The notes under the pieces were generated by a model that saw nothing but the letters and a program-made list of their open reading frames with translations, did no database searches and had not been told where the DNA came from. A stretch of 61,498 nt of DNA, from positions 1 to 61,498 of the forward strand of contig CAIOAT010000020.1 in assembly GCA_903856085.1 (NCBI GenBank). Reading direction: 5' to 3'. The DNA comes from Candidatus Omnitrophota bacterium. GTDB lineage: Bacteria; Omnitrophota; Omnitrophia; Omnitrophales; Aquincolibacteriaceae. Shown here in pieces: positions 8,688 through 56,797 of this stretch; the first letter of the stretch is position 1, and each line of letters begins with the position of its first letter. The position numbers were made by a program, and so were the translations under genes.

Positions 8688-8799
8688 GGAGTTCGCCCCC
8701 AAGTTCCGCTTCCACTATGCGAATCCGCTTGCGGTACAGGCGATAAAGCGCGGCGCATCGTCTGGTGATCTTCCTAAATGTCTTCTTCTGGATTTTCAT
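8677..8799 (-). CDS. Small basic ORF (40 aa)
   Basis: Manual translation gives MKIQKKTFRKITRRCAALYRLYRKRIRIVEAELGGELHVC. Its ATG overlaps the TGA of the upstream 136-aa ORF (ATATGA), and GGAGG lies just upstream. Confidence 0.4.
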   Translation of the reverse strand: MKIQKKTFRKITRRCAALYRLYRKRIRIVEAELGGELHVC

Positions 8800-15063: not shown

Positions 15064-15091
15064 GGCTTTCTCCCGGCATTTAATGACCGCA

Positions 15092-15379
15092 TTATAAAAG
15101 ACGCCAAAATTGGCCCCTTTGCCAAAACAAACAGAGCCCGACAAAAGCTCCGGTGACAGCAACGGCTAAAAAAAAGATCACTATTTTTATCGAGATTTTA
15201 TGCAGACCTTTTGTTTCTTTTTTGGAATCCGCCGCGAGCAAAAAGTGCGCTATTATAAAAAAAACAAGAAAGATAAAAGGGGGAACCGCATATTGCGGTG
15301 GATAAAAAGTTAGCGCAAGTATCAGGAATATTAACGCCAATACAATTAGCGAACGTACAAGAATCGTCTCTATTGACAT
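15092..15379 (-). CDS. Small membrane protein (95 aa, about 3 TM)
   Basis: ORF track. Hydrophobic segments include LIVLALIFLILALTF, FIFLVFFIIAHFLL and IVIFFLAVAVTGAFVGLCLF. It is the first gene of the two-component operon. Confidence 0.5.
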   Translation of the reverse strand: MSIETILVRSLIVLALIFLILALTFYPPQYAVPPFIFLVFFIIAHFLLAADSKKETKGLHKISIKIVIFFLAVAVTGAFVGLCLFWQRGQFWRLL

Positions 15380-24362: not shown

Positions 24363-27300
24363 TTAAGCAGAAGCGGAGATCTCACGCTCCGCTGCCGCGA
24401 TATGCTGCAGAAAGGCCGCGACGATGGCAATGCCCTGCCCAATCCGAAATGCGGCCGAGGCAAACAGATCCGGAAGAGCATGCCGTAGAGTCGTCGCGTT
24501 AATATCCGATGTCGCAGTTTTCGCAAAGTAGCGTGACAGCGCAGGAAGAAGCAGGATGCCGTATTCTTTCGGGATCTCAGAGCGGACCACACGCTGCCAT
24601 TCGGAGATCTTTTGGGCCATCGCCTCCTCAGGAAAGAAAATTCCGAATTTCCCTCTAAATTGTTCGTTTTCAAAAACGCTACGGCTAAGCTCTGCGGCAA
24701 TATCTTCCGGATCCTTCCCCCCGATAAAATGAACGCCGCGAAGCATCCCGGTCCCGGATTTTGAAAGCTCGGTCTCAAACTTTAGAAGTTCGGCCTTGTT
24801 CTCCGAAACGAGCGTGATCCGGTACTGCTTGCCCGTCGCATCTCCCACGGCTTCAAATCCCTGTTGAACGGTCAAGATGAACTTCGTCAACCGGTCTTTC
24901 ATCTCCGGAGAATAGAAAATAACAGGCGCCATACCGCCAACTTCGCGCGTCCGGATTGATTCGGCAAGCGAATTTAAATCCGTCTGAAAGAGTTTCTCGG
25001 CTAAACGCTCCATTTTTTCACGGCTCAAATTCTTTTCACGTAGCACACGTTCCAGCTCCTGGAAGGCCACGGCCTGCCCTGTTTCCCCCGTGATCATCTC
25101 CGCCATTGCTTGTGGCAGGATCTGCTCCGCCAGACTGGCCCGGAGATCCCGGATGACATCTTCAATATTCACCCGCACCGCCGCGATGAGATTTGTGAGC
25201 TCGTTTTGGCCTATCGGTTTCCCCTCGACTACGGCCCTCGCGATCCCTGCATATAAATCGGTTTTTGCTTCTACGACTCGAGACTCCGAACGAATGGTTA
25301 TGGGAGTCTTCGGTGCCGAAACAACACCCCGAACAAAAAGTGCGTGCGATGTATCCGAAGATAAGGCGAGTGGGTCCGATGAACGTATCGTGGCCCACTG
25401 CGTCGAATGTTCAAAGATCGCCGCGGCATCAGAGGCTGGAGTATGGGCACCCTCCACCCGGTCAAAAATGCCTTTCTGTGCACATTGGAGCATAAAAGAA
25501 ACGTCTTCGGACTTTGCCGGATAAAAAACTGTCACAAATCCCTCTTCCCCCCCGGATCTTTCAGATGAAATCTCCCCCGAGATCCAATGCATAACAGCAG
25601 AGCTAAATCCTTTATGAGTATCACTTTTATCAAAAATATGAATACTAATATATGCTTTCCGATCGGTCCGGCTGGCCGCGGCATAAACAACCCCGACGGG
25701 TCTTTCTTTTTCAAACAGAAAATACCAATTCGAAGAGTAGGCCTTCAAAGAAAGATGCTTCTCCTCCGACAGAACTTTATCCCTACCATCCAGACTTTCA
25801 TGCCAGAAATGGTCATGACCCCTGAGCTCCTTAAAGATTACAAAAAAATCTGTTAAACCCAGGATAAGATCGGGTTGGGGGACAAGTTTTGAGAGCTGCG
25901 CCATAAAAGAAGGCGTTCGACGATCGGTAGCGATCATATCGATACCAATCATTTTCTGTACAAGCTCCGCGATAACGCTTTTCACCATATCTCCGGTACC
26001 CTCTCGCACAAGATAGAATGCAACGCGTTGGACAACTGGGGCCTCAAGAAACGGCTGTCGGCGACAAGCCTCAATGATCGTGTTAAGAACCGAATGATTC
26101 ACACAGCACGGCACACGTGATGGATCAGCGGAAGCAAGTATCAGCACATCAAGAGCAGTCAGCAAAAGCTCTTCATCACCACGTTCCTGAAGGTGAATTA
26201 AACGCTCCACAATTTCCGGATAACGACGGGCGCTCAAAAGCGTCTCGATTCCGTCTTGATCTCCATGACGCGCAGGAACGGTTGTCAAAACGATCTTCTC
26301 AGTTCGAAGATCGCTCACCGCCTCGGGTGTCTCCGAAGACGGACCGAAAGAATGTTTGAAGCCGTACGCGGCCAATCGTTGGATAATATTAGCCCTTCCT
26401 TCAGAGCCGATATTTCGAATGCTTTCTAACTCCACCTCGGAGAGCTGACGGAGCTGACCAATGGTCGTTATCTCATGCTGGATGAGAACGTTCCTGACTC
26501 GCTCATCAAGCTCCAAAAGCTCGATCCTGTCATTATCCGTTAATTGTCTCTCCTTATCGCTAAGGGACGGCAATCCATTGCGGGCTAAACGTTCGTTGAT
26601 GTGCTGCAATATCGTTGACGTCGCTTCCCCTGCGGCTTGAAGCTTACGCGGCGATATCGCAAGCAATTCCCCAATCGTCTCGATTTGAAGTCGCGTCATC
26701 ACCCTCATCGCCGCAGCATTCAGACGTAGATACAAAACCGGATGTTCCGGTCCGAGAGGTTGGGCCCTGTAGATCTCGTAATATTGCTCCATCTTATGCA
26801 ACGCTCTCCTGAAACGGAACCAAGCCGCCTTAGCCCCGCTAGTTCCCTTTTCCCTGGCTGCCTCCGAAATCGATTTCGGATTGGTGTCAACAACTTGCCG
26901 GATCAAATCCTTTTGCGAATCAATCAGAACCTCAGAGGATTGAAGTACAAAACTGAGATAACCCTGATCCCGTAAGAACGAGTAGTCTTCCCGGAGCCTT
27001 TCCTGAAAACTCAGCTTGGGGGTGCTCGGAGAGATGGCCGTAACCACAGCCGAAGATTTATCGATCTTTTTTATTTCGATCACACGATTGCGGTTCTTTT
27101 CAAAATAGCCCCCGATCACAATCTGGTCACCTTCCCGAACCGTAACAATTGAAATAGCGGATTCCCCGGAGAAAATCTGGCCAAGCGCCATGGGCTCGGC
27201 CTTCACGGCAAGCGGATCTTTTTTTCGTTCCTGCTCGACAAATGCAGCGAATTGATCGCCTTGCCCAGAAATCAAATGGACATGCCTTGGAACCGCATCG

Positions 27301-30300
27301 AGCATGACTTGCATTTCAAGGATACGGGCCCCTGTCACAGAAGGGCCGGGCGTTTTCTCTGAGATTTTTTTCGGAGTAGACGCTGTGATTCGAATATTTT
27401 CAAAAACTATTTGAGGACTCTCTGGCTGGAGCGTTACTTCTTTCCGTACAGGCTCCTGCTCCTTGGCCCGCAACTCGGAACGGGGCGTCGCTCGTCCTTC
27501 CTCCTTTAGCTGCACAGTTTGAGATTCAGAAAGAATGCCCGCTAACCTTAAGATGCGATTGGTAATGCGGATATACTTCGCGGCGCCTCCGGCTTCGGCG
27601 GGAACGTCGGAAAAAATAACAAGACCTTTGGGGTGAAATCGAAGGTCCTTTTTAGGACCTACCTGAACACCGATCTCGGCCACATTCATCGCAGGCCCAT
27701 CGTTACCGATGTCGTCAATTTGATCGCCTAAAAAGACGAAGTATTCGTTTGGCTTTAGAAATCGGGTTTGGATTTCGGCTAAGGCGCGGCCCTTGTTCGT
27801 CGTGGTGATATTCACTGCCGTTTTCCCTCCGACTTCGGCCTGAATATTGGGATCGGACAGCCGCCCCCGGATCTGTTTATTGATATCCTGCGCTATTTGT
27901 TTAAGAAATTTTACATTTAAACGGTCACTTTGAAATGTTCGCCTCGATTCCTGCGTCAGCAATCCAGGTACGTAAAAAGCAATCGAAACGTCATCATTCT
28001 CCTCAGACACGGGACGAATTTCGACCAGGCCGGGATAGGAATCCACTTCGTGGTGATAGCCAAGACCCTCCGAAAAAATACTTCTAAGCCCCTGCCTTTC
28101 GGCGGTGCTCTTGAGCACTTGGCGGAGGATCTGAAGATCTCCGGGTTTAATTCCAGCAATGAGTTGGTTGCGTTTAAAAATATCTTCCTGAGGATCGTAA
28201 ACAAAACTATTAATGCCGGTATTGGAAAGAGAAACGATATTCTTTGCAGCCTCTGTTTGGGGTCGTATATGTTGGCTTGCGTCACGAAAAACAAATCCGG
28301 TCGGCAGGAGAAACTTTTCAAAAAGCGTCGTTGAACGGTCTCCAGTGACCAAATAAAATTTCCCTAGAGCGAGCGCTTCCTGAAGCGCCTGCGCGACGTC
28401 TGGATAGATTGTATCGGACTTGGGAGTGAAAAGAGCCAGCGTTTCTTTAACGTCGCTCGCGAGTACGGGCGTTCTTCCCCCCAGCAAATTCTGAAAAAGT
28501 TTGTACTTGAAAAGAAACTCCGGCTCGGTGAGGCGCAGTTTTTGGATCTCCGCCTCAGACAAATCAAACAAGGACCGCAGAGACGTCAAGAGACTCTGAA
28601 ACGTTTCCGTTCGAATGCCCATTTTGAGGGCCTCCAACTGAGACGGACTTTGACCTTGAAGCAACCCTGACAATTCGTCAAGCAGCGTGACCGCGACCCT
28701 AACATCCCGAACGTTTTGGGCTTTCTTTGAAAAATCTTCGATCAAAGAGGACGGAAGATCCGGCGCCGGCTTCAACCCATCCCGAACCTCCGCACGGCCC
28801 GACGGAAACTGCGCGGGTGCATTATGTTCCAGGACAGAAGCCTCGTACTCATTCAGCGCATGGTTCCACGTCGCAAGGTAGTGGACATAAACAAATGGAT
28901 AGAAAAGCTTGGAAGCCTCTCTTAATCCTGAGTGAGTATAAATTCCTTGAGCAAGGGATTCACGTATGAAAGGCAAATGCTTGGCGTCAATACTATGGCC
29001 CTGGAGCTCTACATCGCGAACAGCCCGCCGGACAATTTTGCGCAATTCACCCCAAGCCGCCTCGGAATTCTGAAAACTATTTTTAATCCATTCCTCGATC
29101 CGAAATTCCCTTTTTAAGATGCTATTCCCGGTCAGTAATGGGATTTTTTCATTCAAGGCCATGATTTGATCATAATCTGTTCGGAATTCCTTTTTGAATC
29201 CGGCAAGCTGGCTTTGCCACACCGGAAGATCAACTTCCGGCTTTAAACGGAAGGCTTGGAGATCGGCCGCGGACTTGAGTGCCAACGGTTTCCACAAATG
29301 AAGTACACGACCTACGACTCGCCACCACGGCTCCTCGGTACGCGGTTCTTTCCGTCGATCCATAAACACCTTGGATGACATTTGATCAACACGCAGAACC
29401 AAAGGTTTACTTAAAATAGCGCCATTTCTCCGCCCAGTGATGCGTTGGATCAGAGTGACGAACCCCACGCCAAAGAACAGGGCTGGCAAACAAACAAAAA
29501 CAGCGAGAGGGATATCGCGTACCACGGGGATATCAGACAATTTACCGTTCGACTCCAAAACCAATCGCCCCGTCAAAAGCAAGGTTGAAGCGCTCATCAA
29601 AGTCATGGACGCTCTCATCGCAATCCCCAGCTTTCTCTCCCGCCCAAGCGGGATCTTCGCGTGCTTTTCTCCCCGCAACTCAGACCGAAAGTTTTCAGAA
29701 TTTTCTGCTGTTGTTGGGACTTTTTTTTCAGGGCGCGAAACAACGTGAACCGTATAAATCCGCTTCCCATGGATCTGTTGAAGGAGAATACTCGATATGC
29801 TCATGACACCCAAAAACAGGGCTGGTAAACCGACGAAAACAGCAAGTGGGATGTTGTTCATGATCGGAACATCAGTCAATTTTCCATTCAACCCCAGAAA
29901 CAACCTCCCCATCAAAAACAATATCGAAACATTCATCAACACCATGGCCACGCTTATCACGATCTCCAGCTTCCTCTCCCGACTGAGCGGAATTTTCTTG
30001 AGTTTCTCCAGTCGAAGATCGGAGCGAAATCCCGGCGTGTTGGTTTCAAGAAAGGCTTTGGAACCAAGATCTTGATTCTTCACGCGATGAGATGCCGAGA
30101 CTGCAAGAGACGGCGGAAAGGTAATTGTCGCCTGGCCTTCTCTCACTATGACAGAAGCCAATGATGTGATCTCAAAAAAATCGGACTGGCGGGCTTTTTG
30201 GAAGCCAAAACTTTCAAGGTGTTCTTTGACAGCTTCGCTCGCAGTAGCGCTCCCAAGATTCCAGATCACAGTCCTGACATCATTGTTCACATTGGCTTCA

Positions 30301-36300: not shown

Positions 36301-39300
36301 GAACGAATGCCCGGTTCAACCTCGCCGGCGAGCAATTCGGGCCGCAAGGAATCCGGCATCGCGTCTGCAGAGCCACTTTGTGACAGGGCCTCAGACCAAG
36401 GACGCGACGGACGGGCTTCCCGGAAATAATGCCGAAAGGCTCCGACAAATTCTTCAGCGTGATGCCTTTCCATCCAAAATTCCGAAAATATTTCGAATGC
36501 TTTGATGACAACTTGTTTTTCGAATCCAGGCGGGACATTCTCCGACGCCATCCGAGCCAAGGAATCTTCCACAGCATTCAGGAACCCGCCCAAATTGAAC
36601 GCGCGTCCCGTGCGGAGCAATTGATGGATTGATTCCTTGAGTTCTGGTGATAGCACCACAGCCTCGATACCGATATCACGAAGATCGGTAAACACCGCTT
36701 CCGCGGGATAAAGACTTATCTTGCGATGCTCTCCTTCTCCCAGCTGATGCATAATGAGTTCGCCCGCCCACTCCCCAGGCATCCCGGTTCGATCGACCAT
36801 CCGCCGAACCGTATCGTGCAACAATTTCCACTCCTCGAAAAAAAGCGTCGGCTTACGCGTCTCCTCAATTTCTTTCGGTTCTTCTTCTGTTCCGTCATCA
36901 AGAAAGTGGTCCAGCGAAGCGGAATCTAGAACCCCCAGCTTCTTGAAATATTCAAATCGTTCCATCATTTCAACCGTATGGTCAAACAGAACCGGTTCCC
37001 TATTGTTCTTCACCCATTGCGCTAAAGCAGTCCAGGCAACCCGTTTAAGGCCCAATTGTTCAAACGCCGAAGGAAGCGCTTCATAACTAGGCCTTTCTAG
37101 AGGACGGTTCCGGATAAGCCAATAGACTGCTTTCTGAAGATCCTGGCGCCGCCTGTCACCGAAACCGGTCATTACGGTGGCACCAAGCTCTGCTAGTTGC
37201 TCGCCCCCGACACGGCCGACCTGCGCAATCGTTAATCCGAGTACTCCGGATAATTGGGCGGCAGTCGCCCCGGGATTTTTTTGAAGCGCGTCCCTGAGTA
37301 AATCGGTCCTTTGCTCCCGGAGCTTCTCTGACAGAGTCTGCAGGTCATAGAACACGGTCCCGAGCCCCTCGAGGACCTTGCGACCCAGCTTCTTGATCGA
37401 ACTCTGACCCATGCCCGTCAGCTCCGCGAGGCTCTTTATATTAATCTCCTCACCCGCTTCTTTCAGAATTTCTGCTGCCCCCGAGACGATCTCAAAGTTG
37501 TTTTCGCGGCGCTGAGCGCCAGCTCCCGGCAGAAGACCCGCCCGCTTCAAGGGCATCTTGAAATGGCGGAGCGCGACAGGCAAAGCCTCCTCACCAAACC
37601 CCGGATCCACCAAACGCACAACACCTATGACCTGGCGAACCGTCAATAGCGCGTTAGGTCCTGAACCCAGGAACGCACGAGATAAATCGATCAACTTTAA
37701 CCAATCCGCGAGTGTTTTCCGTTTGATCGTTAAGACATGACGCAATTGAGTTTTGATCTTTCCTTCTGCAAGCAAATTCGTTAACTGGCTAAACGGAGCC
37801 GCAAGAATTCTGACAAGATCTGTTCTCGCCCTGTGAAGTTCGGCATCCTGCATCTCAAATCGCAACTCCGAGCGCTGTAACTGTCCGGCAACTTCCTCCC
37901 TTTCTTCCAGAAGGGGTGTGGATTCTTCATCATCAAACGAGGGTGTTTTGGGAAGATCGTCCAAAGCGGACAAAACAAGCTGATGGGAGGCCTTTGTGCG
38001 CTCCACCAACGCTTCCAATCGACGGATCATTCCGGTATTAGCGCGCATACTCGGGATCATGGATGGCAGCCAGCGACCGAGAATTTTCAGGTCGTTACTT
38101 TCCGGTGATAAGCCCTGTCCGGACCGGTTGCCGTCACTCTTCAGCACTTTTAGTAACAAGGACGATAATTGCTCAAATCCCGCGACCCATGCTCGGATAT
38201 CCGCAACGCAACGCGGAACGGCATAACCTTCCACTGCCATTCTTTCATAAGCAGCCCGGAGAGCGACCGTATTGAACTGTTCCACTGCATCGGCAAGAAA
38301 GTCGATGCATTTTTCTAGATTATACGCCGTATAAAAACTGCCCCAATCCTTCTTGTTCCTCTCCAGAATGTCCCAACCCTCTTTCCAGACTCCTGTTGCA
38401 AGACGGGTTTTTAATCGAGCCATAAACCTATCACCAAAAACTCTGCGAGGCGACATCCCTTGTTCAGCGGTTTCACCCGGCATCCGGTCCACCTCTGCAA
38501 ACAAAGTCGCCACCATCCCCTGCTCCCTCCGCTCGAACTCAAGTCGAACCGGAACATTCATCAACGCAAGCTTCGAAAAACTCTCCAGGCCTTTACCGTA
38601 ATTTTCTTTCAAATGGAGTGCACTCCTCCAATAAAAATCTTGCAACAAAAGGAGACTGAGCTCTGAATTCCGGGCCAATCGCGTCCACTGTTCTTCCGTC
38701 ACTCGCCCCTGGCGGACGACGACCCGCAGAAGAGTCGGGCCCTCCGGTATCTGCATTACTCGAGCTTCTACCTTGGCATCGCTCCCACCCGGTTGCCGTT
38801 CTGAGGCATTCCTGACAACCTCACCCACCAAAACCCCAAGAAGATTTGCAGAGCCCTCATCATCCATAAGCGCTATAAAATTCTTCTCACGACCCGCCCA
38901 ATATTCCTCAAATTTTCTGCCCGAGATTGTTTCATTAAGAAGCACTTTTTCTACAGCGTCGAATCCATGACTCTGAAAGACCCCGGGATCACTTTGCCCA
39001 TTAAAAATGATCTTATTTTCCGCCGCCCGCGACTCCGACCGAGGCCCGCCGCTTTTCTGTGAACGAATGGATGGCTTGGAACGCAGAGCCGTATTTTCCT
39101 TCCTCAGTCTCGTCAATTCCTCATCAAAAGTTTCTTTTCCCTCTAAAACTTTGGAAACCATTTTTGGGGACGAAAGAACCGCCGCTGGCTTTGAAACTCT
39201 CTGGCTTTTTTCACCCATCGTTTTCCCCTTTGAGGCAGCGTTCCTTAATTCGTCGTTCGCTCTCTGTAAGTCAGCGATTTCAGCATCGAGATCGACTATT

Positions 39301-42300
39301 CCCCGTTGTTTTGCATCCTTCAGCCTGCGCTCAAGCTCTTTTTCTTCCATCCGTACATTGAAACGCGTTTCCGATCGCATAAGCGAATGAAGAAACTGAT
39401 TTTGCCCCAAACGAATGAGAAACAGTGCGCGTTCGAGTGTATTCTGAGCCATCGCCTGGTTTTTGGCCTCTCCGGCGGTGCGTTGCAAAAGAGGATCTAG
39501 TTGGCGCAACTGTTCAGGAGTCAGCACATCCATCTCCCGAAGCTTTGAAAACCAGCCCGGATAATATTGAATGCGCTGGTCCCAATAAGCGGCATACGCG
39601 TTCAGAAAACGCACATGCGCGGGTTTCACTTCCCGAAGATCACCGTGAGAGCGCGTAACAAGGGCCTCGAGCGTCTGTGCCGCAGCAAGAGATGCTTTCC
39701 ATGAATTGACCAAGTCCCCTCTCGGATCATTGAATTGGCTTTTATAAGAAGCGATCCGAATCGCCAATTTTTCAAGATCGCCTTCTGTCATTGTCCAAAT
39801 TTTGTTACGCATGCCTTGCCGGATCGCATCCAAGACCTGCTTCTCCCCACTGTCCGGCTTGTAATTAAGTCCGAGATAGAACATCTGCGACACGTCATCA
39901 TCGACATACAATTTCAACAGGTCCTCGTTGGAGACCAGTCTTGAATCCAGTATTTTTTTGATCACCGCGATCCTGCCCGGATGCTGCGCGGAAGTATCTT
40001 CCATCGTGATGTCGACGCCCAAACCTTTCCAGACCGTCTCAAAGATCGCATGGTCATAGCCACGTTCCATCAACAAAGCCTGCGGCCTGAGCTGCCCGAC
40101 CTTGACGCTCATCAACTTCACCATCGCCTCATCACGTCTGTGCTGAAAATCCCAATGCCTGCGGACTGCCTCGCGATAAGCCCCGTAAAAATCCGGGACT
40201 ATCCTGTCCTGTGTCTTGTCGATATGCACTTCAAGCAATTGTGCCGGATCAAAGGTTGCCTCGACAAAATCGAGCCAAACATCAAACGGAACGATCTCAT
40301 CCAGAACCGTCGCGTTCGGGATCCCAGCGTAAAGGCTGTAACGCTTTTCCGAAATGTCCTGGTCATATCCCATGTCTTTCGTCAGTTTTTGAAGCTGTCC
40401 GTTTGCACGCATCGCCTGCAATTCGGCCATCAGCCCATAATAATAAGGCTCAATTTGTGCGGCGAATTTCCGAAGGTCCCGAGTATCATTCACCGGGATG
40501 CCCTTCCCCCTTGCGAGATCCATAATGGTCCCAGGCGGCAAAACATCTTCATTAAAAATCAAAATTCGAGCATTCGCACCATACTGGGCCTGGATCCGTG
40601 CAGCTTCCGCCTTGAATTTGGACCCCGTCTCGCCTAATCCTCCGAGGTGGGCATGGTCCTTAAAAAGAAGATAGAAATGGGTGGCCGGTGCAGCAGCAAC
40701 AGGAACGGAAGTTTTGCCTTGATGAGATCGGGGGTTAAAAATCAAATGACTCGCGAATGCCATGATACCAAGCAAGGCAACGGTGACGACTATTTTTTTG
40801 AATAACGACGATTCGTTTGATAAATCAAGACGGGAAAGCAGCGCGGAACGCTCGAATGACCCAGAAAGCTGATCGAGATAATCTCCGGGCGGCGCTTTAT
40901 TGACCATTCCAGAAACCAGAAATTCTTTAAGATCCCGGCCGGCAGCATTTCGAAAGACCAGCCGGTGAACCATCGCCGGCTTTTCGGAAACAACGCTTGC
41001 CTCAATGGATGCCACCGCAGCGTACTGGGGATTCGACTTTGCCTTTCGTCCAATGAGTCCGGCGATCTCTTCCCTGACCCGGGCTCCCAAATTCCCGCCT
41101 TGGATGGTCACCCTCACCTCAGAACGTTGTTTGCCTGTCACGGCAGCCTCTTTTTTTCCGGTTCCCTTTTTTACTGAACGATAACCTTCTTCAAACCATT
41201 GAGCAGCTTCAGGACTAAATAGACTCTCCACAGATCTACGAACGTCTCGAAACTCACGCAGGCCCTCGGAACTTCCAGGAATAATCTCTTTCCCTGATTC
41301 AAAATCAATAAAAGAAACATGAAACAGATTGGATTCCAGCGGTTGGGCATAAATATGGTCCAAACGGAGTGTCCATCGAGTATCGTTAGAGTAGGAATGA
41401 GTCAGCTCGCCGTGTCGAACCCCTGCTTTCTTGTGAAGATTTGCGAGAGCGCTTCCGAATGATCGCATGAGACCAGGCCAAAGGTCTTTTTTCTTTCGGA
41501 AATAAGCCAAAGACCGGCCGGCCACTTGCCTCGTCACCAAGATCTTGTCACCATCTTTCCTTGAAATAAACATCACTTCCGGGTAATGATTGACCGCCGC
41601 AGCTTTTTGGGCCAATCGATATTCTTGTTCCATAAGGAACGAGAAAAAACCAAACAGAACAGCAAGTTTTTTTTCTTTTTCGTAGACGCTACGACGAACC
41701 TCTTTGGTAAAGAAAACCAAAGGCTTCTGTCCTTCGAACGTAACATTATGACGAAAAACACGCGTCTCATTCCCTGCTCTGATCACACTCTTTCTTTGGT
41801 AATGGGTGATCGACAATGAACCCGGCTGTTTTCCCGCGAGAAAAGATTTGATTTGCCCTGTCATTTCTGGATCATCCCAGAACCACTCCCGAAAATCCTG
41901 CTCCGCCCTGACGGTTTCCCCGGAACTCTTTTTCTGCCGATCTGCATTTCGAACTTCGGCACGTACGTTTTCGATTTCCGGAGCAACGTGAGCCGGCTCT
42001 GGTAACCCAACGGCTTTGGGAATATTAACTTCGCGAGGAACTTCCTCTCCCCCGGAACGCGTGGAACTGGAAATGCCCAACGTGGTCGCTCCTCGCTCCC
42101 CGTCTAGCGTTTGCTTCAAGGCCGTTGTTTCCCACTGACCAAAACCCCTTACGTCCATCACGGCGCCTGGTCGCAATGAAGCCGCGGCACAGGGTGTTTG
42201 ATTCGCGGGCTGCTGAAAAAGCTTCATCACATTGGCTTCACTGAGCTGATTTTTCCCATTGAGGAAACGCAGTCCTTCGATGAATTTTTCGAGCTTGGCA

Positions 42301-44198
42301 GTCCATTTTTCTTTCAACGCCCGGAATTCCTCAGAATGCCCGGCAAGGGACTGGTCGATGAAACGCGTGTATTTCGAGTGCTCCGCAACACGGCCTTCAG
42401 CAGCAAGAGTGCGAATAATATCGTCGCGCCATTCCTTTAAGGCAGTACGCGACAGATCGTATGTCGCATATCGCGATCCCGTTCCCTGCAACGTAAGCCG
42501 TTCAACGGTTGCGTTGACAAAAGCATCATACAGATTGATCTTCCCGTTCTTCGGTCTGAAATATTTTTGCCACGATACTTTCCCCTGCATCTGGTCGAGG
42601 TAGCGATGGTCGTTTGGAATTTCTCCAATGCGTGGCGAAACTACGACATACGAGACACCTTGTTCCTTGAGCTTGGCCGCAAGACCCTCCGTGTGGAAGC
42701 CCCCGGCCACAAACACAACGGTGTTTGTGTCACGGGAAACGGGAAACGACGGGTGTGAAGCACTAACGCCCAAAAGATCTTTGAGTCGCGAATAAAAAAT
42801 TTTTTCACGCTCCATGGCAATTTCATAAAAACGGAAGAAGTCCGTTACTAGCGCTAAGCGATAGGTGGCAAGAAACTTGCCCCGGAGAGATTGAATGTCT
42901 GGGGTGTCGGGTAATTTTACGTTTGTCGTTCCCCCTTCCCCGTTCCCAGCGCGGAGCGTTTCCCATTCGCTTCGCGACAGTTCGAATTTAATGAGCTTCT
43001 CCATCCGTTGCACCCGCCCATCGAGTTCATCGACAGCTTTCGCTTCCGGAGTGGTGAGAAGTTTTGCCTTGATCGACTCGATGAACCCAGCAAGCTCGGC
43101 TGAAAACGTCTGCCCTTTCATGCTCACGAGGGTTTCATGTCCTGTGACCATCTTCTGAAGATTTTCTGAGAGCGAAGGAACCTGCTTCCCAGCTTTTCTT
43201 AGCAAATTCGAAACCTCGTAGGCAAAAGCTGCGAGAGAGAGGTGACCGGTCCTGTAGTCCTGCACAAACCCGTTTAGCTCTGCACTAGGAACGATTTTGT
43301 GGGCATCTTGGGCAAGCCTCTTCACTTCCGCTTCAATCTTTGAATCTCTGGTTTTTTCTTGCGCCAAGGTCTTGAACAATGCGCTGAGTGCTAAGCGCTT
43401 GATACTTGGCACTTCGTACTTTGCAAGAAACTCCAGGAATGAAATCAACTTTCTAGGATCTGCCTGCCATGCCCGGAACTTCGCATCGAATTCAATCGCT
43501 TCCTTGGAATAGTATTTTGTTTTGAGCTTTTGAAGTTCTTTATTGAACGTTGCGTTTTGCGTATTGAGCTCGCCTTGTTTCTTAAGCCCTCCAAGGAATG
43601 CGGCAACACCTTCTTGATAGAGCTTCCAATCTTCGATCCCGACATAGTCCGCTTTGTGGGATGAAAGCACGCTCGCGGCCACAGCTCCGGAAAGTTCCCC
43701 CGAATCAAGATACTCCGTGAAAACTTTCACGAGTTTTTCCCGGTCATGAAAATTCCTGAAAAGTTGCGGGTCAAGCTTCCCTTCCGCACCTTCAAGCGCC
43801 ACGGTCGTAACGCCGTAGACCTCCTGGAGATATTCGATCAGTTTCTCAAGCGACCGCTGGGCGTCCGGAACACTGTGCGCATCTTCAATGAGCACGACTT
43901 CGCTTGGATTGAACTGTATTGGGGCCGCTCCGCGTGCGATGCGATAAACATCGTTTATCGTCCCAATGTCGGGAGGGATGACGAGCTCCTGCACTTTTCC
44001 GCTTGTCGCGGAGGCCGAGGCAAGAAGGCTGGTGTCAGTCCCTCCCTGAACATTAGATGAAATCGGAGTTTGGCCCAAGGCCTGGGCCGGAAAAGAAAGA
44101 AAGCTAGAACACAGGAAGACGCCCGCTGTGAACAGGCTGATCGCCTTGAGGGAAAAACGTGAAAAAAGATCCTTGTGTAGAGATGTTTTTTGGTTCAT
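24363..44198 (-). CDS. Giant multi-pass membrane mosaic protein (about 6,611 aa)
   Basis: A single open frame of 19.8 kb ends at the TAA at 24363. I prefer the ATG at 44198 (MNQKTSLHK.., GAGG upstream), which is followed by a signal/anchor helix. Domain-like segments are listed separately below. Confidence 0.9.
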   Translation of the reverse strand: MNQKTSLHKDLFSRFSLKAISLFTAGVFLCSSFLSFPAQALGQTPISSNVQGGTDTSLLASASATSGKVQELVIPPDIGTINDVYRIARGAAPIQFNPSEVVLIEDAHSVPDAQRSLEKLIEYLQEVYGVTTVALEGAEGKLDPQLFRNFHDREKLVKVFTEYLDSGELSGAVAASVLSSHKADYVGIEDWKLYQEGVAAFLGGLKKQGELNTQNATFNKELQKLKTKYYSKEAIEFDAKFRAWQADPRKLISFLEFLAKYEVPSIKRLALSALFKTLAQEKTRDSKIEAEVKRLAQDAHKIVPSAELNGFVQDYRTGHLSLAAFAYEVSNLLRKAGKQVPSLSENLQKMVTGHETLVSMKGQTFSAELAGFIESIKAKLLTTPEAKAVDELDGRVQRMEKLIKFELSRSEWETLRAGNGEGGTTNVKLPDTPDIQSLRGKFLATYRLALVTDFFRFYEIAMEREKIFYSRLKDLLGVSASHPSFPVSRDTNTVVFVAGGFHTEGLAAKLKEQGVSYVVVSPRIGEIPNDHRYLDQMQGKVSWQKYFRPKNGKINLYDAFVNATVERLTLQGTGSRYATYDLSRTALKEWRDDIIRTLAAEGRVAEHSKYTRFIDQSLAGHSEEFRALKEKWTAKLEKFIEGLRFLNGKNQLSEANVMKLFQQPANQTPCAAASLRPGAVMDVRGFGQWETTALKQTLDGERGATTLGISSSTRSGGEEVPREVNIPKAVGLPEPAHVAPEIENVRAEVRNADRQKKSSGETVRAEQDFREWFWDDPEMTGQIKSFLAGKQPGSLSITHYQRKSVIRAGNETRVFRHNVTFEGQKPLVFFTKEVRRSVYEKEKKLAVLFGFFSFLMEQEYRLAQKAAAVNHYPEVMFISRKDGDKILVTRQVAGRSLAYFRKKKDLWPGLMRSFGSALANLHKKAGVRHGELTHSYSNDTRWTLRLDHIYAQPLESNLFHVSFIDFESGKEIIPGSSEGLREFRDVRRSVESLFSPEAAQWFEEGYRSVKKGTGKKEAAVTGKQRSEVRVTIQGGNLGARVREEIAGLIGRKAKSNPQYAAVASIEASVVSEKPAMVHRLVFRNAAGRDLKEFLVSGMVNKAPPGDYLDQLSGSFERSALLSRLDLSNESSLFKKIVVTVALLGIMAFASHLIFNPRSHQGKTSVPVAAAPATHFYLLFKDHAHLGGLGETGSKFKAEAARIQAQYGANARILIFNEDVLPPGTIMDLARGKGIPVNDTRDLRKFAAQIEPYYYGLMAELQAMRANGQLQKLTKDMGYDQDISEKRYSLYAGIPNATVLDEIVPFDVWLDFVEATFDPAQLLEVHIDKTQDRIVPDFYGAYREAVRRHWDFQHRRDEAMVKLMSVKVGQLRPQALLMERGYDHAIFETVWKGLGVDITMEDTSAQHPGRIAVIKKILDSRLVSNEDLLKLYVDDDVSQMFYLGLNYKPDSGEKQVLDAIRQGMRNKIWTMTEGDLEKLAIRIASYKSQFNDPRGDLVNSWKASLAAAQTLEALVTRSHGDLREVKPAHVRFLNAYAAYWDQRIQYYPGWFSKLREMDVLTPEQLRQLDPLLQRTAGEAKNQAMAQNTLERALFLIRLGQNQFLHSLMRSETRFNVRMEEKELERRLKDAKQRGIVDLDAEIADLQRANDELRNAASKGKTMGEKSQRVSKPAAVLSSPKMVSKVLEGKETFDEELTRLRKENTALRSKPSIRSQKSGGPRSESRAAENKIIFNGQSDPGVFQSHGFDAVEKVLLNETISGRKFEEYWAGREKNFIALMDDEGSANLLGVLVGEVVRNASERQPGGSDAKVEARVMQIPEGPTLLRVVVRQGRVTEEQWTRLARNSELSLLLLQDFYWRSALHLKENYGKGLESFSKLALMNVPVRLEFERREQGMVATLFAEVDRMPGETAEQGMSPRRVFGDRFMARLKTRLATGVWKEGWDILERNKKDWGSFYTAYNLEKCIDFLADAVEQFNTVALRAAYERMAVEGYAVPRCVADIRAWVAGFEQLSSLLLKVLKSDGNRSGQGLSPESNDLKILGRWLPSMIPSMRANTGMIRRLEALVERTKASHQLVLSALDDLPKTPSFDDEESTPLLEEREEVAGQLQRSELRFEMQDAELHRARTDLVRILAAPFSQLTNLLAEGKIKTQLRHVLTIKRKTLADWLKLIDLSRAFLGSGPNALLTVRQVIGVVRLVDPGFGEEALPVALRHFKMPLKRAGLLPGAGAQRRENNFEIVSGAAEILKEAGEEINIKSLAELTGMGQSSIKKLGRKVLEGLGTVFYDLQTLSEKLREQRTDLLRDALQKNPGATAAQLSGVLGLTIAQVGRVGGEQLAELGATVMTGFGDRRRQDLQKAVYWLIRNRPLERPSYEALPSAFEQLGLKRVAWTALAQWVKNNREPVLFDHTVEMMERFEYFKKLGVLDSASLDHFLDDGTEEEPKEIEETRKPTLFFEEWKLLHDTVRRMVDRTGMPGEWAGELIMHQLGEGEHRKISLYPAEAVFTDLRDIGIEAVVLSPELKESIHQLLRTGRAFNLGGFLNAVEDSLARMASENVPPGFEKQVVIKAFEIFSEFWMERHHAEEFVGAFRHYFREARPSRPWSEALSQSGSADAMPDSLRPELLAGEVEPGIRSEVRLKQQKTEREHAKNVVQTAAKNIALFRNHLQVLRGESQASSPYSGGLYAPAIVLDGMWNGKHRVAISGPHWSLKNIEAIDRYAEAILNQSEKWLIFVEPLHSDGTPSYPETDAALKLAELGDIPFMDPVPSQFDPAVSKEMANQYGISLSEINRAYIYRNIFDQIRLNPYMTEDELYRLVTIAIDLQAEESKSDRKQMIRDVTSNARTVYQGGESARDWTRKAYDIQLKMNKVINDIGRLRLNRQLKNYPERTNILFLSGRFHGAIVGNEAAEEYTLKNGLQFRESQAEAYQNVAGLVLAWAKAQPRRSEVRDLKGLIKKTAEFGFKAAKIMGWGVLGIDVILLAMNPLLVGSVIGQYLLIGVEGTLITMLLYQLRNVKAPWKAVGVAAVGIAALALFFHVFLPHFVTILAFSSLGNLGDVVLKIGMRAAGIFSGIFFYVLIEGKVLKHTEAAKKTPLSTGLRWAMGDGLVLGFFFYAIFYPFLGATIPVALHFPFLLHFFSPSLAASFSTAILKLAFDLTIVTALVHGPMQVVTKVVLGEMEKDALTRPYRHSKAVKSYLDMYPIIALVMTVIMGLAWMKDPAGGMAVSGTHALFAMLNAMLSRWIVTKDISGVENGKRGADASVKNDWVEGERLVTQFVTLFHESGIQPVLNDLKNTPILADPGARLYAAFVVARDTFDREGVVKREYLDQIARDLSMIHWTVERFAEPDKTFKSGITLRGLSEAVIKNPEKFKDFPDRITMARNVMEKFLGESVDPSVKAAIQKKFSDFREPFIKIESGLLPILQRLNVRSEARGWKPVWWEDFLKDAETVFEFQNQAGYYEDNMWHPLSPDDLLELTSHGRVLLVVPSSKFDESSLEAVRIANMIRKRNPDLQILVAGKYGELPSQHRVGWFWDEFGKRMTEAKYHALHMSMRGVEPDYVVEKYTHTGEIAQGTRSLMDEKKIRPENLLIVDVDPLRVTAVFRKQLLTPEEFAQGKSLKDLGIRRIIQWPAKGKPIRELATEEAVRVAAYLVTELIKLWDYVPPRGDFITPVPVNQDVVEAAARLNARLREVPELVTVVPSKDEIAGREGRFKDWLTELTASFSRHEVIIVPDQGGKKTGEPRSEARLAVGPAGKIHEREFVFTRESASDFHASSAEQGKFLQKVSNDLLNDGKGQRLSLNWTHEFPQGIPESLVRLRENVVRQWGRVDGRFEPPVVDEQKQYMRKEVETRDFQFVLTELVKNAAKSLKGPNKYGKIQLKISKREGSLWIELSDEGVGIKTVEDRGTWISVVSDKNVQSGYGIALPWIKLLLEARGGRLEILSPSPYSGYSTTMRLVIPENEIQIKSAADVRAEMRQQAVSNAVTSFKTNYQGKLATITEYPDPQGLSRILKGLEVRDGKYQGRVLDPGFYIMVHPISANERIIQEAKKEFSDFLTGLRGIFGKDGGKVGFWIPEDSAYHLALHVFQNSNEFSDEKVSPLDSDQRSKVRGIVREEAQREAAPFKVLQAGYGITADGGFVTFLWDESGRLSNFQKNVSEKTVVALGQRVTGWEKRGHVTVGRIMSLPYSDDPAVRAEQKKKVFEYIRQKADDFSGKWEANLTDPSKQVPYSIPSVTVLQENQWCTLRGSEQTTIPVFQKRNEGERIRVAISKGRRIVLPESFGFKEGDDLILLGAMYREPVEIIIARSADFMNVFLPNLRNVVPDPETRAAYKRLYGAQSMTAKVEMRKSGAQDQLTLRLDADFLKMMDEPRELILKKAKNFSSQIRSEFRSNSQPSESETQMDQIRALAKDLDAGDRILAPRVKDSLFSEMLQQQWTPGEFQTYIDQKNADFIEYLRQGLETFGMHEISPEILSTLRPFYLRAYLVLKQNWLSGREPSRQTILTAYSRLRKHGWNDQQIYEFLEKELLDKQSNITAFNSADRLRTADVIAGALEKYFKTQGIEGPPRSEVRSAMSFGSRSMPVPAGITSGYLLTVPDEFAFNAFVERLSPDVTIQIDTPMARLLQVGNDFVLTFEANVNNDVRTVIWNLGSATASEAVKEHLESFGFQKARQSDFFEITSLASVIVREGQATITFPPSLAVSASHRVKNQDLGSKAFLETNTPGFRSDLRLEKLKKIPLSRERKLEIVISVAMVLMNVSILFLMGRLFLGLNGKLTDVPIMNNIPLAVFVGLPALFLGVMSISSILLQQIHGKRIYTVHVVSRPEKKVPTTAENSENFRSELRGEKHAKIPLGRERKLGIAMRASMTLMSASTLLLTGRLVLESNGKLSDIPVVRDIPLAVFVCLPALFFGVGFVTLIQRITGRRNGAILSKPLVLRVDQMSSKVFMDRRKEPRTEEPWWRVVGRVLHLWKPLALKSAADLQAFRLKPEVDLPVWQSQLAGFKKEFRTDYDQIMALNEKIPLLTGNSILKREFRIEEWIKNSFQNSEAAWGELRKIVRRAVRDVELQGHSIDAKHLPFIRESLAQGIYTHSGLREASKLFYPFVYVHYLATWNHALNEYEASVLEHNAPAQFPSGRAEVRDGLKPAPDLPSSLIEDFSKKAQNVRDVRVAVTLLDELSGLLQGQSPSQLEALKMGIRTETFQSLLTSLRSLFDLSEAEIQKLRLTEPEFLFKYKLFQNLLGGRTPVLASDVKETLALFTPKSDTIYPDVAQALQEALALGKFYLVTGDRSTTLFEKFLLPTGFVFRDASQHIRPQTEAAKNIVSLSNTGINSFVYDPQEDIFKRNQLIAGIKPGDLQILRQVLKSTAERQGLRSIFSEGLGYHHEVDSYPGLVEIRPVSEENDDVSIAFYVPGLLTQESRRTFQSDRLNVKFLKQIAQDINKQIRGRLSDPNIQAEVGGKTAVNITTTNKGRALAEIQTRFLKPNEYFVFLGDQIDDIGNDGPAMNVAEIGVQVGPKKDLRFHPKGLVIFSDVPAEAGGAAKYIRITNRILRLAGILSESQTVQLKEEGRATPRSELRAKEQEPVRKEVTLQPESPQIVFENIRITASTPKKISEKTPGPSVTGARILEMQVMLDAVPRHVHLISGQGDQFAAFVEQERKKDPLAVKAEPMALGQIFSGESAISIVTVREGDQIVIGGYFEKNRNRVIEIKKIDKSSAVVTAISPSTPKLSFQERLREDYSFLRDQGYLSFVLQSSEVLIDSQKDLIRQVVDTNPKSISEAAREKGTSGAKAAWFRFRRALHKMEQYYEIYRAQPLGPEHPVLYLRLNAAAMRVMTRLQIETIGELLAISPRKLQAAGEATSTILQHINERLARNGLPSLSDKERQLTDNDRIELLELDERVRNVLIQHEITTIGQLRQLSEVELESIRNIGSEGRANIIQRLAAYGFKHSFGPSSETPEAVSDLRTEKIVLTTVPARHGDQDGIETLLSARRYPEIVERLIHLQERGDEELLLTALDVLILASADPSRVPCCVNHSVLNTIIEACRRQPFLEAPVVQRVAFYLVREGTGDMVKSVIAELVQKMIGIDMIATDRRTPSFMAQLSKLVPQPDLILGLTDFFVIFKELRGHDHFWHESLDGRDKVLSEEKHLSLKAYSSNWYFLFEKERPVGVVYAAASRTDRKAYISIHIFDKSDTHKGFSSAVMHWISGEISSERSGGEEGFVTVFYPAKSEDVSFMLQCAQKGIFDRVEGAHTPASDAAAIFEHSTQWATIRSSDPLALSSDTSHALFVRGVVSAPKTPITIRSESRVVEAKTDLYAGIARAVVEGKPIGQNELTNLIAAVRVNIEDVIRDLRASLAEQILPQAMAEMITGETGQAVAFQELERVLREKNLSREKMERLAEKLFQTDLNSLAESIRTREVGGMAPVIFYSPEMKDRLTKFILTVQQGFEAVGDATGKQYRITLVSENKAELLKFETELSKSGTGMLRGVHFIGGKDPEDIAAELSRSVFENEQFRGKFGIFFPEEAMAQKISEWQRVVRSEIPKEYGILLLPALSRYFAKTATSDINATTLRHALPDLFASAAFRIGQGIAIVAAFLQHIAAAEREISASA
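26356..26735 (-). other. Giant protein: two RpoA alpha-CTD-like helix-hairpin-helix domains
   Basis: LELDERVRNVLIQHEITTIGQLRQLSEVELESIRNIGSEGRANIIQRLAAYG closely follows the alpha-CTD pattern LELSVRS.N.L...gI.tigdL......eL..i.N.G.KS..EI...L...G. A weaker copy is LNAAAMRVMTRLQIETIGELLAISPRKL. Confidence 0.55.
27680..28365 (-). other. Giant protein: HAD (Cof/IIB)-like segment, possibly degenerate
   Basis: Motifs present are FYLVTGDRS (TGR-type motif II), NKGRAL and FLGDQIDDIGNDGPAM (motif IV-like). I found no clean DxD motif I. Confidence 0.3.
29415..30029 (-). repeat. Giant protein: in-frame tandem duplication (2 x about 113 aa); each copy is RS[DE]LR + KIPL-RERKL + a two-helix TM hairpin
   Basis: Copy 1 is FRSDLRLEKLKKIPLSRERKLEIVISVAMVLMNVSILFLMGRLFLGLNGKLTDVPIMNNIPLAVFVGLPALFLGV. 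Copy 2 is FRSELRGEKHAKIPLGRERKLGIAMRASMTLMSASTLLLTGRLVLESNGKLSDIPVVRDIPLAVFVCLPALFFGV. The period is 339 nt. Confidence 0.85.
31285..31415 (-). other. Giant protein: SpoVT/AbrB-like segment
   Basis: RIRVAISKGRRIVLPESFGFKEGDDLILLG resembles the AbrB-type pattern 'kGqitIPkeiR..lglkeGD.l'. Confidence 0.4.
32320..32650 (-). other. Giant protein: GHKL (HATPase_c-like) ATP-binding domain
   Basis: FVLTELVKNAAKS is the N-box, ELSDEGVGI is the G1/DxGxG motif and SGYGIALPWIKLLLEARGG is G2. Confidence 0.6.
34470..35330 (-). other. Giant protein: polytopic transmembrane block (about 290 aa, roughly 8-10 helices)
   Basis: Hydrophobic helices run continuously from FGFKAAKIMGWGVLGIDVILLAM to ALFAMLNAMLSRWIV. 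Confidence 0.7.
35480..36030 (-). other. Giant protein: ChaN/Tiki-like module 3
   Basis: The module runs from KWLIFVEPLHSDG to NILFLSGRFHGAIVG. Confidence 0.3.
37190..37450 (-). other. Giant protein: two HTH-like segments
   Basis: The segments are NIKSLAELTGMGQSSIKKLGRKVL and GATAAQLSGVLGLTIAQVGRVGGEQL. Confidence 0.3.
40020..40580 (-). other. Giant protein: ChaN/Tiki-like module 2
   Basis: The module runs from ARILIFNEDVL to LLMERGYDHAIF and lies directly after the TM helix at 40741-40800. Confidence 0.3.
41270..41800 (-). other. Giant protein: protein-kinase-like (Kdo/RIO-type) fold segment
   Basis: LVFFTKEV is VAIK-like, VRHGELTHS resembles a catalytic loop with D->E, and VSFIDFESG is DFG/IDF-like. 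Confidence 0.35.
42640..43910 (-). other. Giant protein: ChaN/Tiki/TraB-superfamily-like module 1
   Basis: VVLIEDAHSVPDAQ resembles ChaN 'vvllGExHdnp', and VVFVAGGFHTEGL resembles the C-terminal GxxH motif. Confidence 0.35.
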
Positions 44199-44555
44199 TT
44201 GCCTCGGCCTTGCTTGATTTCTAAAAGGATTTATAAAAAGATAACATACAATTAAGTTTCGACAAGGGCGTGGCACATTTATATTTGATAAAACTTCGTC
44301 AATCGAATGATTTTATCAATAGGAATATGGAGATCATTTTCAATTCTTAATGCTATAAATTACATTAAAATACGAATAGCAATAAATAGCATGATATAGC
44401 TATTTAAATCACACGGCTAGCGTAGAAGGACCGCGAACGCAGCAGGAAAAACAAGGAACTTAGAATCTGGATGCGCTTTAGGACATGAAGGGTTTACACC
44501 ACCAGAGGCTTAACTTAGCAGAACTAGCTTTAATTGAATTTCAAAGGCTCTTACG

Positions 44556-56720: not shown

Positions 56721-56797
56721 GATCATTCCTCCCAGTGAATCGCGGGACACTCCCGATCAAGCAACAGCAACCGAGGAACGCTGCTCCCAAAAACCCC

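Follow-up and report, generated by a model that had tools for sequence, protein, structure and literature searches.

A 6,611-residue mosaic protein of Candidatus Omnitrophota with conserved ends, a replaced body and a recurring pentapeptide at its module boundaries: a possible bacterial polyprotein

Does a bacterial gene of almost 20 kb give rise to one protein or to several? The question is raised by contig CAIOAT010000020.1 of a Candidatus Omnitrophota bacterium (assembly GCA_903856085.1), which was analysed from position 1 to position 61,498 (the window). A single open reading frame (ORF) on the minus strand, at 24363-44198, i.e. 19,836 nt, encodes 6,611 amino acids and a stop, counted from an ATG. 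Comparison with relatives indicates that its product, called the giant in what follows, belongs to a family of very large proteins that is specific to the phylum and whose members have a conserved head, a variable body and a conserved tail, and that the pentapeptide R-[S/A]-E-x-R recurs between the modules of the body. Our favoured reading is that the chain would be cut at this peptide; the evidence for it and for the alternatives is weighed below.

The giant ORF is a genuine gene of this bacterium. The original prediction, made from the DNA letters alone, had singled out one uninterrupted minus-strand frame, and this holds: the chance of ~6,600 stop-free codons is negligible, codon usage matches that of the housekeeping neighbours in frame 0 only (13 of 13 tiles of 500 aa, r 0.69-0.82, with r at most 0.38 in the other frames), GC content is flat along the ORF with no compositional break, and a search of the ORF for direct DNA repeats of at least 30 bp, a potential cause of misassembly, found none. 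The single internal repeat of the protein that BLAST can detect is a pair of transmembrane (TM) hairpins, 61% identical to each other. According to the ORF listing, the longest possible frame is 24363-44276 (minus strand), which from its first GTG would give 6,637 aa. The true start is the ATG at 44198 and not the GTG at 44276, because a GAGG lies a few bases upstream of the former and the N-termini of homologues align there: those of P0001, P0002 and P0014 begin with MNxKTS (MNKKTS.., MNRKTS.., MNQKTSLQ..). Cysteine makes up only 0.2% of residues over aa 1-6611, and CxxC does not occur.

The R-[S/A]-E-x-R motif and the modules around it

The motif was first noticed among homologues as a recurring RSEMR or RSEAR. 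The giant itself carries 16 copies of R-[S/A]-E-x-R, 13 of them of the form RSExR, for which 0.18 are expected, and three of the form RAExR; a relaxed pattern yields just five extra sites. From the N-terminus onwards, all on the minus strand, they are RAEVR (aa 746; 41949-41963), which is the first delimiter past the head and has equivalents in P0001-4, P0009 and P0014; RSEVR (aa 1025; 41112-41126); RSETR (aa 1608; 39363-39377), a homology breakpoint with the fragment P0008; RSESR (aa 1720; 39027-39041); RSELR (aa 2109; 37860-37874); RSEVR (aa 2632; 36291-36305); RSEVR (aa 2943; 35358-35372), immediately before a polytopic membrane module; RSEAR (aa 3428; 33903-33917); RSEAR (aa 3742; 32961-32975); RAEMR (aa 3971; 32274-32288); RSEFR (aa 4385; 31032-31046); RSEVR (aa 4566; 30489-30503), where homology to P0008 and P0016 resumes; RSELR (aa 4838; 29673-29687); RAEVR (aa 5135; 28782-28796); RSELR (aa 5573; 27468-27482); and RSESR (aa 6303; 25278-25292), at which the tail starts.

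Over the whole family RSExR was observed 211 times against 4.7 expected, and it is the sole enriched pentamer outside the head. Its density is 1.57 per thousand amino acids (kaa) in head-bearing ORFs, compared with 0.066 per kaa in ordinary ORF segments, a value close to that predicted from composition; it is absent from housekeeping proteins of ~960-1,010 aa, and among the remaining ~120,000 codons of the window, counted in six frames, only six chance copies occur. The median spacing of the motif is 312 aa. Position 4 is L, V, M or A, and the flanks carry nearly no sequence information; in composition they have a hydrophobic fraction of 0.25 versus 0.33 (p 2e-34) and are enriched in P, G and S. 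Since codons vary between copies, selection acts on the peptide, and we rejected a DNA or RNA signal on the same ground. Phosphorylation of the motif is disfavoured because Ala stands in the Ser position in 26% of the family's copies.

The motif is also the top gapped pentamer in six independent giants (P0016, P0108, P0014, P0055, P0027 and P0072) drawn from a library of 1.84 billion proteins, and in P0070 (6,894 aa) RAExR takes the place of RSExR. Some giants that have a single module in common with this ORF carry different short motifs: P0057 (7,620 aa) has ARLA/GARLA 15 times against 0.38 expected, P0047 (4,305 aa) has SSPA(Q) 13 times against 0.07 expected, and P0054 belongs to the same group. 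RAExR, ARLA and SSPAQ could be lineage-specific dialects of one linker code. A literature search for the motif strings returned noise only.

How does the motif sit with respect to the modules? None of ~70 motifs lies inside the ~19 Pfam envelopes that cover ~11% of body length, for which our own arithmetic gives a chance of ~3e-4; as an example, the MarC domain of the relative L004 (966-1153) falls in the interval from the motif at 937 to that at 1210. Homologues elsewhere exist for eight segments of the giant, and not one of these crosses a motif by 30 aa or more (P = 2.6e-4 for random placement). A soluble module (aa 1188-1617; 39348-40637, minus strand) is 76% identical to P0008: homology ends at ...SLMRSE[T/S]R and resumes at the motif of aa 4566, skipping ~2,900 aa. 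At the other end, six aligned proteins have a motif at the point where the tail starts. As judged from these alignments, each body module is bounded by R-[S/A]-E-x-R, which appears to lie in linkers and to coincide with homology breakpoints.

The modules themselves look autonomous. The MarC module of relatives is a whole membrane protein, and whole enzymes also occur as modules among them. A module of unknown function near the C-terminus of the giant (aa 5976-6302; 25293-26273, minus strand) has stand-alone homologues of 299-375 aa, some of them with a signal peptide of their own, and the pair formed by a helix-turn-helix (HTH) and the C-terminal domain of the RNA polymerase alpha subunit (alpha-CTD) also exists as a stand-alone protein of 165 aa, P0083. 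The modules behave as units that evolve independently, and the sets carried by orthologous loci are completely different. An AlphaFold2 (AF2) run on three consecutive modules (aa 3433-4565), made with no alignment, gave a mean predicted local distance difference test (pLDDT) of 35.6 and was unusable.

Head, tail and body across the family

The head (aa 66-690, ~620 aa; 42129-44003, minus strand) is conserved in all relatives (alignments A1 and A2), with invariant IQDAH, EGA and GIED motifs, the arginine of ALxRE, and GGFH; the residues concerned are D41/H43, E71, E124, R399 and G434-G435-F436-H437. In an AF2 model built from an eight-sequence alignment (pLDDT 79.4, predicted TM-score 0.69) the head is predicted to have an alpha/beta core split by a helical insert of ~290 aa. 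The top four matches of this model in a Foldseek search of the PDB were the erythromycin esterases EreC and BcR135 (E 0.17-0.36, TM-score 0.09-0.22), and PF04187 (ChaN, of the Tiki superfamily) matched two of nine heads, with a best E of 0.11; no head matched PF04187, PF01963 or PF05139 significantly. As the weak fold and profile lines agree, a ChaN/Tiki-like head is plausible, and we regard membership of the Tiki/ChaN/erythromycin esterase superfamily as plausible rather than established. The modelled head appears to have in common with the Tiki, TraB, ChaN and esterase proteins a two-lobed alpha/beta core, a strand that ends on a histidine (IQDAH), acidic residues in EGA and GIED, an Arg that is conserved and, in GGFH, a second GxxH, and these residues may correspond to the bipartite signature of the superfamily, i.e. 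a His motif plus Glu followed by Arg plus GxxH. It differs from them in its insert, in a first motif that reads QDAH and not GxxH, and in that all its scores, from Foldseek as from Pfam, are below significance. Three ChaN/Tiki-like domains had been proposed for the giant; the head remains as one, on this weak evidence, and the other two do not, an hmmsearch with the head profile finding a single copy.

The tail (aa 6303-6611, ~310 aa; 24366-25292, minus strand) begins at RSESR (alignment A5) and in the giant closes with a hydrophobic or amphipathic helix followed by ...EISASA-COOH; in the alignment, a hydrophobic helix is likewise followed by ...[A/S]SA-COOH. An exhaustive HMMER search with aa 5412-6611 gave 116 proteins, about 35 of which match aa ~6300-6611 at their own extreme C-terminus; their sizes include 3,171-6,950 aa. 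Head and tail are both present in 11 full-length proteins. The tail found no match in the PDB or Pfam.

The homologues of the N-terminal 1,200 aa are few and are annotated as Candidatus Omnitrophota or Omnitrophica. Scanning the GTDB species representatives with the head alignment revealed 69 loci, nearly all in Omnitrophota metagenome-assembled genomes (MAGs) and often several per genome, from which 62 head ORFs were recovered. The giant has housekeeping neighbours (MetH, UvrC, MurJ, HolA, a 995-aa TPR/YfiO protein, ComEC, GTP-PEPCK, LeuRS and tRNA-Leu), and eight of the loci (L001-L007 and L030) are syntenic with the window: ComEC, TPR/YfiO, HolA, MurJ and UvrC lie upstream, at 64-87% amino-acid identity, and the conserved position of the giant is between UvrC and MetH. 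The heads of these syntenic orthologues are only 45-55% identical to that of the giant, compared with the 64-87% of the neighbours. Past aa ~766, none of the 62 head ORFs aligns to the giant at all, syntenic orthologues included, and P0014 (6,089 aa) shares with it only the head (50%) and the tail (50.5%). By this comparison, the body is swapped wholesale between syntenic orthologous loci.

What the bodies contain differs accordingly from one locus to the next. The body of the giant amounts to ~15 domain-sized modules, and the whole protein has ~17 building blocks; besides many orphans they include the polytopic module, two TM hairpins, a GHKL ATPase, a HAD-like hydrolase and the HTH with alpha-CTD. 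L001 carries GT2, inositol monophosphatase, APH, patatin, a dCMP/MafB19-like deaminase and MarC; L002 a cellulose-synthase-like GT2, a methyltransferase, PALP and a transglutaminase-like domain; L004 MarC and HAD; L006 patatin; L027 a methyltransferase; and L046 radical SAM. A word-indexed homologue search gave one match for aa 1201-3700 and one for aa 3701-6611, and it was not exhaustive, since it missed P0008 with the latter query; scans of metagenome contigs with 4,971 aa of the body and with the M3 alignment yielded zero relatives.

About 20 paralogues of the head occupy a second conserved position (L034, L038-L047, L049-L054, L056, L059, L065 and L069). These are proteins of ~2,400-3,400 aa, encoded downstream of MiaA, HflX, a transaldolase-PGI fusion, a LysM amidase, a KTSC protein and an SNF-family transporter, and they have in common a different conserved tail type of their own. 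Large plus-strand ORFs that enter the upstream edge of L013:1-9500, L024:1-9500 and L048:1-9200 carry the motif at 1.3-4.1 per kaa; that of L024 has its tail in common with the next head gene, so family members can be tandem. In the context of P0001 and in L010, L021, L060 and L067, an in-frame stop or a frameshift breaks the homologous gene into successive ORFs; in one case an ORF of at least 2,602 aa begins 5 nt after an 881-aa ORF. Either assembly errors in MAGs of low coverage or real splits could account for these cases.

Domains, membrane segments and surroundings of the giant

Pfam was run on three overlapping tiles of the giant at E of at most 0.1, and hydrophobic segments and topology were derived from Kyte-Doolittle hydropathy and inspection for the positive-inside rule. 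The protein starts with a Sec-type signal-like segment (aa 1-41; 44076-44198, minus strand), which has a basic n-region, the hydrophobic stretch AISLFTAGVFLCSSFLSF and the candidate cleavage site PAQA/LGQ; judged by hydropathy and the AXA rule, this N-terminus (...FLSFPAQA/LGQ) is conserved in P0001-P0003 and P0014. A single predicted TM helix follows (aa 1131-1154; 40737-40808, minus strand). Relatives have a MarC-type membrane module here, and the helix aligns in position with the first one of that module. The polytopic module (aa 2963-3240; 34479-35312, minus strand) has ~8-10 hydrophobic helices and no family match in Pfam. The two TM hairpins (repeat 1, aa 4720-4811, 29766-30041; repeat 2, aa 4833-4921, 29436-29702, both minus strand) follow each other, the first preceded by a variant motif, RSDLR.

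In the original prediction the membrane segments had been placed much as hydropathy places them: a signal or anchor at the N-terminus, a lone helix at 40741-40800, a polytopic block of ~290 aa at 34470-35330, and two hairpins with two helices each at 29415-30029, for which hydropathy gives 29448-29963. The topology drawn from them, in which large soluble stretches must lie to either side of the membrane, has less force than it was given. The hairpins are basic on both flanks, and on its N-terminal side the polytopic block is strongly basic too. For a chain that stays intact, the simplest predicted topology leaves only the first ~1,100 aa outside and keeps the remainder in the cytoplasm, with insertions embedded in the membrane; it agrees both with the positive-inside rule and with the presence of ATP- and DNA-dependent modules.

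Among the soluble modules, a GHKL ATPase of the histidine-kinase type (aa 3851-3959, G1 box DEGVG; 32322-32648, minus strand), which had been proposed, is confirmed by HATPase_c (PF02518; 29.8 bits, cutoff 26.4). NCBIfam sensor-kinase models align to the same residues, and no HisKA/DHp-type domain was matched by Pfam. Another proposal, a HAD-like domain, gains support from a HAD-IIB-like module (aa 5202-5581; 27456-28595, minus strand) with a motif I, SDVKETL, in which the first Asp is kept and the second is replaced by Lys, followed by VTGD, NKG and GDQIDDIGNDGPAM, which resemble motifs II to IV; TIGR01484 of NCBIfam matches it with E 0.006, below its cutoff, and the module is common to other giants (P0057, P0054, P0070, P0034 and P0065). 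Further on comes a sigma-70 region-4-like HTH (aa 5829-5875) with an alpha-CTD (aa 5885-5943), together at 26370-26714 on the minus strand. The alpha-CTD matches PF03118 (RNA_pol_A_CTD; 41.9 bits, cutoff 23.8). Of the NCBIfam rpoA models only the CTD part (positions ~233-314) aligns to the giant, with whole-protein scores far under the cutoffs and no match to the N-terminal assembly domain of the alpha subunit. Two alpha-CTD copies had been called; one is thus borne out, and the other gives way to the HTH, since P0083, which consists of Sigma70_r4 and alpha-CTD, aligns to aa 5829-5948 of the giant. The same alignment supports, by transitivity, the HTH-like call that had been made. The third Pfam match of the giant, HTH_24, is weak and below its cutoff.

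A pair of 2H-phosphoesterase-like motifs had also been proposed: HVTV at aa 4175 fits HxTx, HLAL is degenerate with Ala in place of Thr or Ser, and no Pfam profile matches there. Neither Pfam nor motif inspection lends any support to kinase-like and AbrB-like domains. By the same means no P-loop, HExxH or adhesin repeats were found, as had been reported, and the view that the giant is not an adhesin, an NRPS/PKS or an RTX protein stands. So does the general picture of unrelated modules interleaved with membrane segments in a single ORF, most of which matches nothing in Pfam, NCBIfam or the PDB; sequence searches of the PDB with the whole giant and with the head and tail profiles returned nothing significant. 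PADLOC gives a single match, to 67 residues of PglW, which overlaps the alpha-CTD, and a role in anti-phage defence was rejected on this account.

In the surroundings, an AAA_22 ATPase and a gene resembling GH35/GH42 beta-galactosidases, itself at 56798-58843 and 12.6 kb from the giant, occupy 55911-58843 (minus strand), 11.6-14.6 kb upstream of the start of the giant; glycoside hydrolases have been reported to flank much larger Omnitrophota giants. On the far side, also on the minus strand, 13471-15162 encodes an unusual regulatory fusion of a response-regulator receiver domain to HMG-CoA reductase, and 11765-13453 encodes a 7TM histidine-kinase N-terminal region and GAF, in which no kinase core was detected; the latter is adjoined by a response regulator with two receiver domains (10021-10845). 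Positions 1-9000 of the window have a GC content of ~0.45-0.48, compared with ~0.50 elsewhere, a strongly negative GC skew at 2-6 kb and short ORFs only, two of which, of 320 and 202 aa, are without Pfam matches; this may be a divergent or mobile region.

One chain or several products

Giants of this kind have been described before. Seymour et al. 2023 (PMC10066038) found that most Omnitrophota classes contain ORFs >20 kb, which show poor conservation, multiple TM helices and little domain annotation, and West-Roberts et al. 2023 (10.1101/2023.11.21.568195) described Omnitrophota giants in which many TM regions occur alongside enzymatic domains of mixed kinds, and raised the question of cleavage, the cleavage points not being known. 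Among the 916 proteins of at least 10 kaa that were studied by Nielsen and Lui 2026 (10.64898/2026.06.07.730766), 94% have a TM helix or signal peptide, 39% fall into the class with signal peptide plus TM (SP+TM), and 80% are singletons at 30% identity; one domain module holds HATPase_c, methyltransferase, GNAT and HAD. The original prediction that an architecture mixing enzymes and DNA-binding modules with membrane segments was unprecedented is therefore not sustained: these three papers make it a known phenotype of the phylum and, as TM-interleaved mosaic giants were already described there, the ORF is not novel in kind. It resembles them in phylum, in a signal peptide and scattered TM helices that account for ~2% of residues, in a mosaic of enzymatic and regulatory domains including HATPase_c and HAD, and in being mostly unannotated, poorly conserved and close to a singleton; it comes closest to class 1, 'multi-enzyme', of Nielsen and Lui, with topology class SP+TM. 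Differences are that, with 6,611 aa and 19,836 nt, it lies under the cut-offs of >20 kb (only just, in the case of Seymour et al.), at least 10,000 aa and >30,000 aa, that no SecA-DEAD, C39 or S8 peptidase domain of the Archaeovorin type was matched by Pfam or NCBIfam at the same threshold, and that it has no adjoining genes for a type II secretion system (T2SS) or pilus, none having been seen in the window. What appears to be new here is above all the R-[S/A]-E-x-R delimiter, and in addition the head-body-tail family and the exchange of whole bodies at a locus that is itself conserved; text searches of the three papers found no mention of head, tail, body replacement or motif.

We favour, with a probability of about 0.4, the reading that the giant is a polyprotein of autonomous modules cut at R-[S/A]-E-x-R. 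The motif would be the recognition site of a dedicated endopeptidase, and the gene would amount to an operon whose products are fused as protein. Export would apply to the head, the membrane modules would insert, and the cofactor-dependent soluble modules would act in the cytoplasm as separate polypeptides. The motif has the look of a protease site because R..E.R is invariant, position 2 is small and position 4 hydrophobic, within linkers that are otherwise unconstrained. Processing is favoured also because a signal peptide, a periplasmic-type head, polytopic proteins and modules that depend on ATP, S-adenosylmethionine, radical SAM or DNA coexist awkwardly on one chain. It is part of the same clash that TM segments are optional in the family, 23 of its 48 ORFs of at least 2,000 aa having no strong one after the head. 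If processing at RSExR is real, the giant need not exist as one chain that spans the membrane many times.

Several points weigh against it. Pfam finds no protease in the ORF or in the window, and both the giant's locus and the second conserved locus are flanked by housekeeping genes only, with no linked protease. The motif is absent or almost absent from eight head-bearing ORFs of >2,000 aa, with no substitute motif in its place, so the head is not strictly dependent on it. In ordinary ORF segments there is no visible avoidance of the motif, which is a weak test. The head is predicted to be periplasmic and most of the motifs would be cytoplasmic, and its assignment as a hydrolase is weak, the match to the Tiki/ChaN/esterase proteins being sub-threshold. 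Cleavage at the motif is itself putative, the topology is derived from hydropathy, and disorder of the linkers around internal motifs is read from composition alone.

The main rival is a protein that stays whole, i.e. a membrane-tethered string of enzymes and binding modules in which the motif is an uncut linker element, where for example a chaperone, modifying enzyme or partner protein would dock or find its recognition site. The frame has been kept uninterrupted over 19.8 kb, hairpins that are basic at both ends can simply anchor cytoplasmic modules, the lack of a protease extends to the ORF, the window and the second conserved locus, and the Omnitrophota papers currently treat such ORFs in this way. 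We consider it somewhat less likely than a polyprotein: a plain flexible linker needs no invariant R..E.R, the frequent Ala in the Ser position argues against phosphorylation as the modification, the gene is split into consecutive ORFs in some relatives, and modules of MarC-type polytopic, periplasmic, cytoplasmic and DNA-binding character on one chain demand awkward topologies.

Another possibility is that the giant is exported as a multi-effector for interaction with a host or prey, the head and tail handling export or translocation and the body modules being effectors for the cytoplasm of another cell, where they would be freed at the motif. Well-known models are the MARTX and polymorphic toxins, which are large and have conserved ends, variable recombining modules and short motifs that demarcate them; in MARTX, autoprocessing frees the effectors. 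The giant has similarly conserved ends, variable modules and a short demarcating motif; its middle is exchanged wholesale at a locus that is conserved, and its head evolves faster than the neighbouring genes do. Relatives carry a patatin phospholipase, a MafB19/Bd3614-like deaminase and a transglutaminase-like core, half of the family has ATP- or DNA-dependent modules behind a signal peptide with no TM segment, and Omnitrophota have been proposed to be host-dependent or predatory. The tails that end in ...[AS]SA recall a type I secretion signal, that of E. coli HlyA (...TLTASA), a likeness that covers only 3-4 residues and that we take as a lead only. We find such a role unlikely, since Pfam detects neither RTX or glycine-rich repeats nor a cysteine protease domain (CPD) nor Rhs/VENN-type motifs in the giant, no secretion genes (type I, T2SS or other) occur in the window or at the second conserved locus, with no immunity genes nearby and no ABC, membrane-fusion-protein (MFP) or TolC genes in the window, many modules of the family are housekeeping-type, ordinary metabolic enzymes (GT2, PALP, inositol monophosphatase, HAD), and its integral membrane modules are hard to square with full secretion.

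An artefact, be it an assembly chimera, genes fused by sequencing errors or a decaying pseudogene, is very improbable, in spite of the in-frame stops and frameshifts within homologous genes of some MAG relatives, because 6,611 codons without a stop, in native frame-0 codon usage over the full length and with neither compositional break nor internal DNA repeats, are matched by full-length relatives (4,500-7,000 aa) that have the same head, tail and motif in independent assemblies, and by a position beside UvrC that is conserved in eight genomes.

To return to a polyprotein cut at R-[S/A]-E-x-R, the obvious parallel is viral. Polyproteins of the picornavirus, flavivirus and nidovirus type join soluble and membrane proteins in one ORF, and are cut at a short recurring recognition sequence with a small residue; the giant, too, strings together soluble and membrane modules separated by a recurring motif with a small residue at one position. 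It differs in being encoded by a cellular chromosomal gene, in that no protease was found in the ORF or window, and in modules that are hypervariable between close relatives. More tentatively, Omnitrophota giant genes, and perhaps those of other lineages, may be bacterial polyproteins at large, operon-like strings cut at a lineage-specific linker code. In such a scheme R-[S/A]-E-x-R would be the form used here, with ARLA and SSPAQ as alternative dialects elsewhere; head and tail would act in export, in processing or in quality control, and the body modules would be shuffled rapidly between strains.

For the question of whether Omnitrophota giants act whole or cleaved, a boundary pentapeptide enriched ~45-fold supplies concrete candidate cut sites; together with the head, the tail and the replacement of the body, it makes cleavage directly testable. 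The motif also shows where such proteins can rationally be divided before they are annotated or their structures predicted, and the common head and tail define a tractable subfamily, with its 69 loci in GTDB genomes. Wholesale replacement of the body at a conserved locus points to fast shuffling of modules, which could bear on the host interaction of host-dependent nanobacteria. If cleavage proves true, polyprotein expression, so far a hallmark of viruses, would be a bacterial strategy of gene expression as well.

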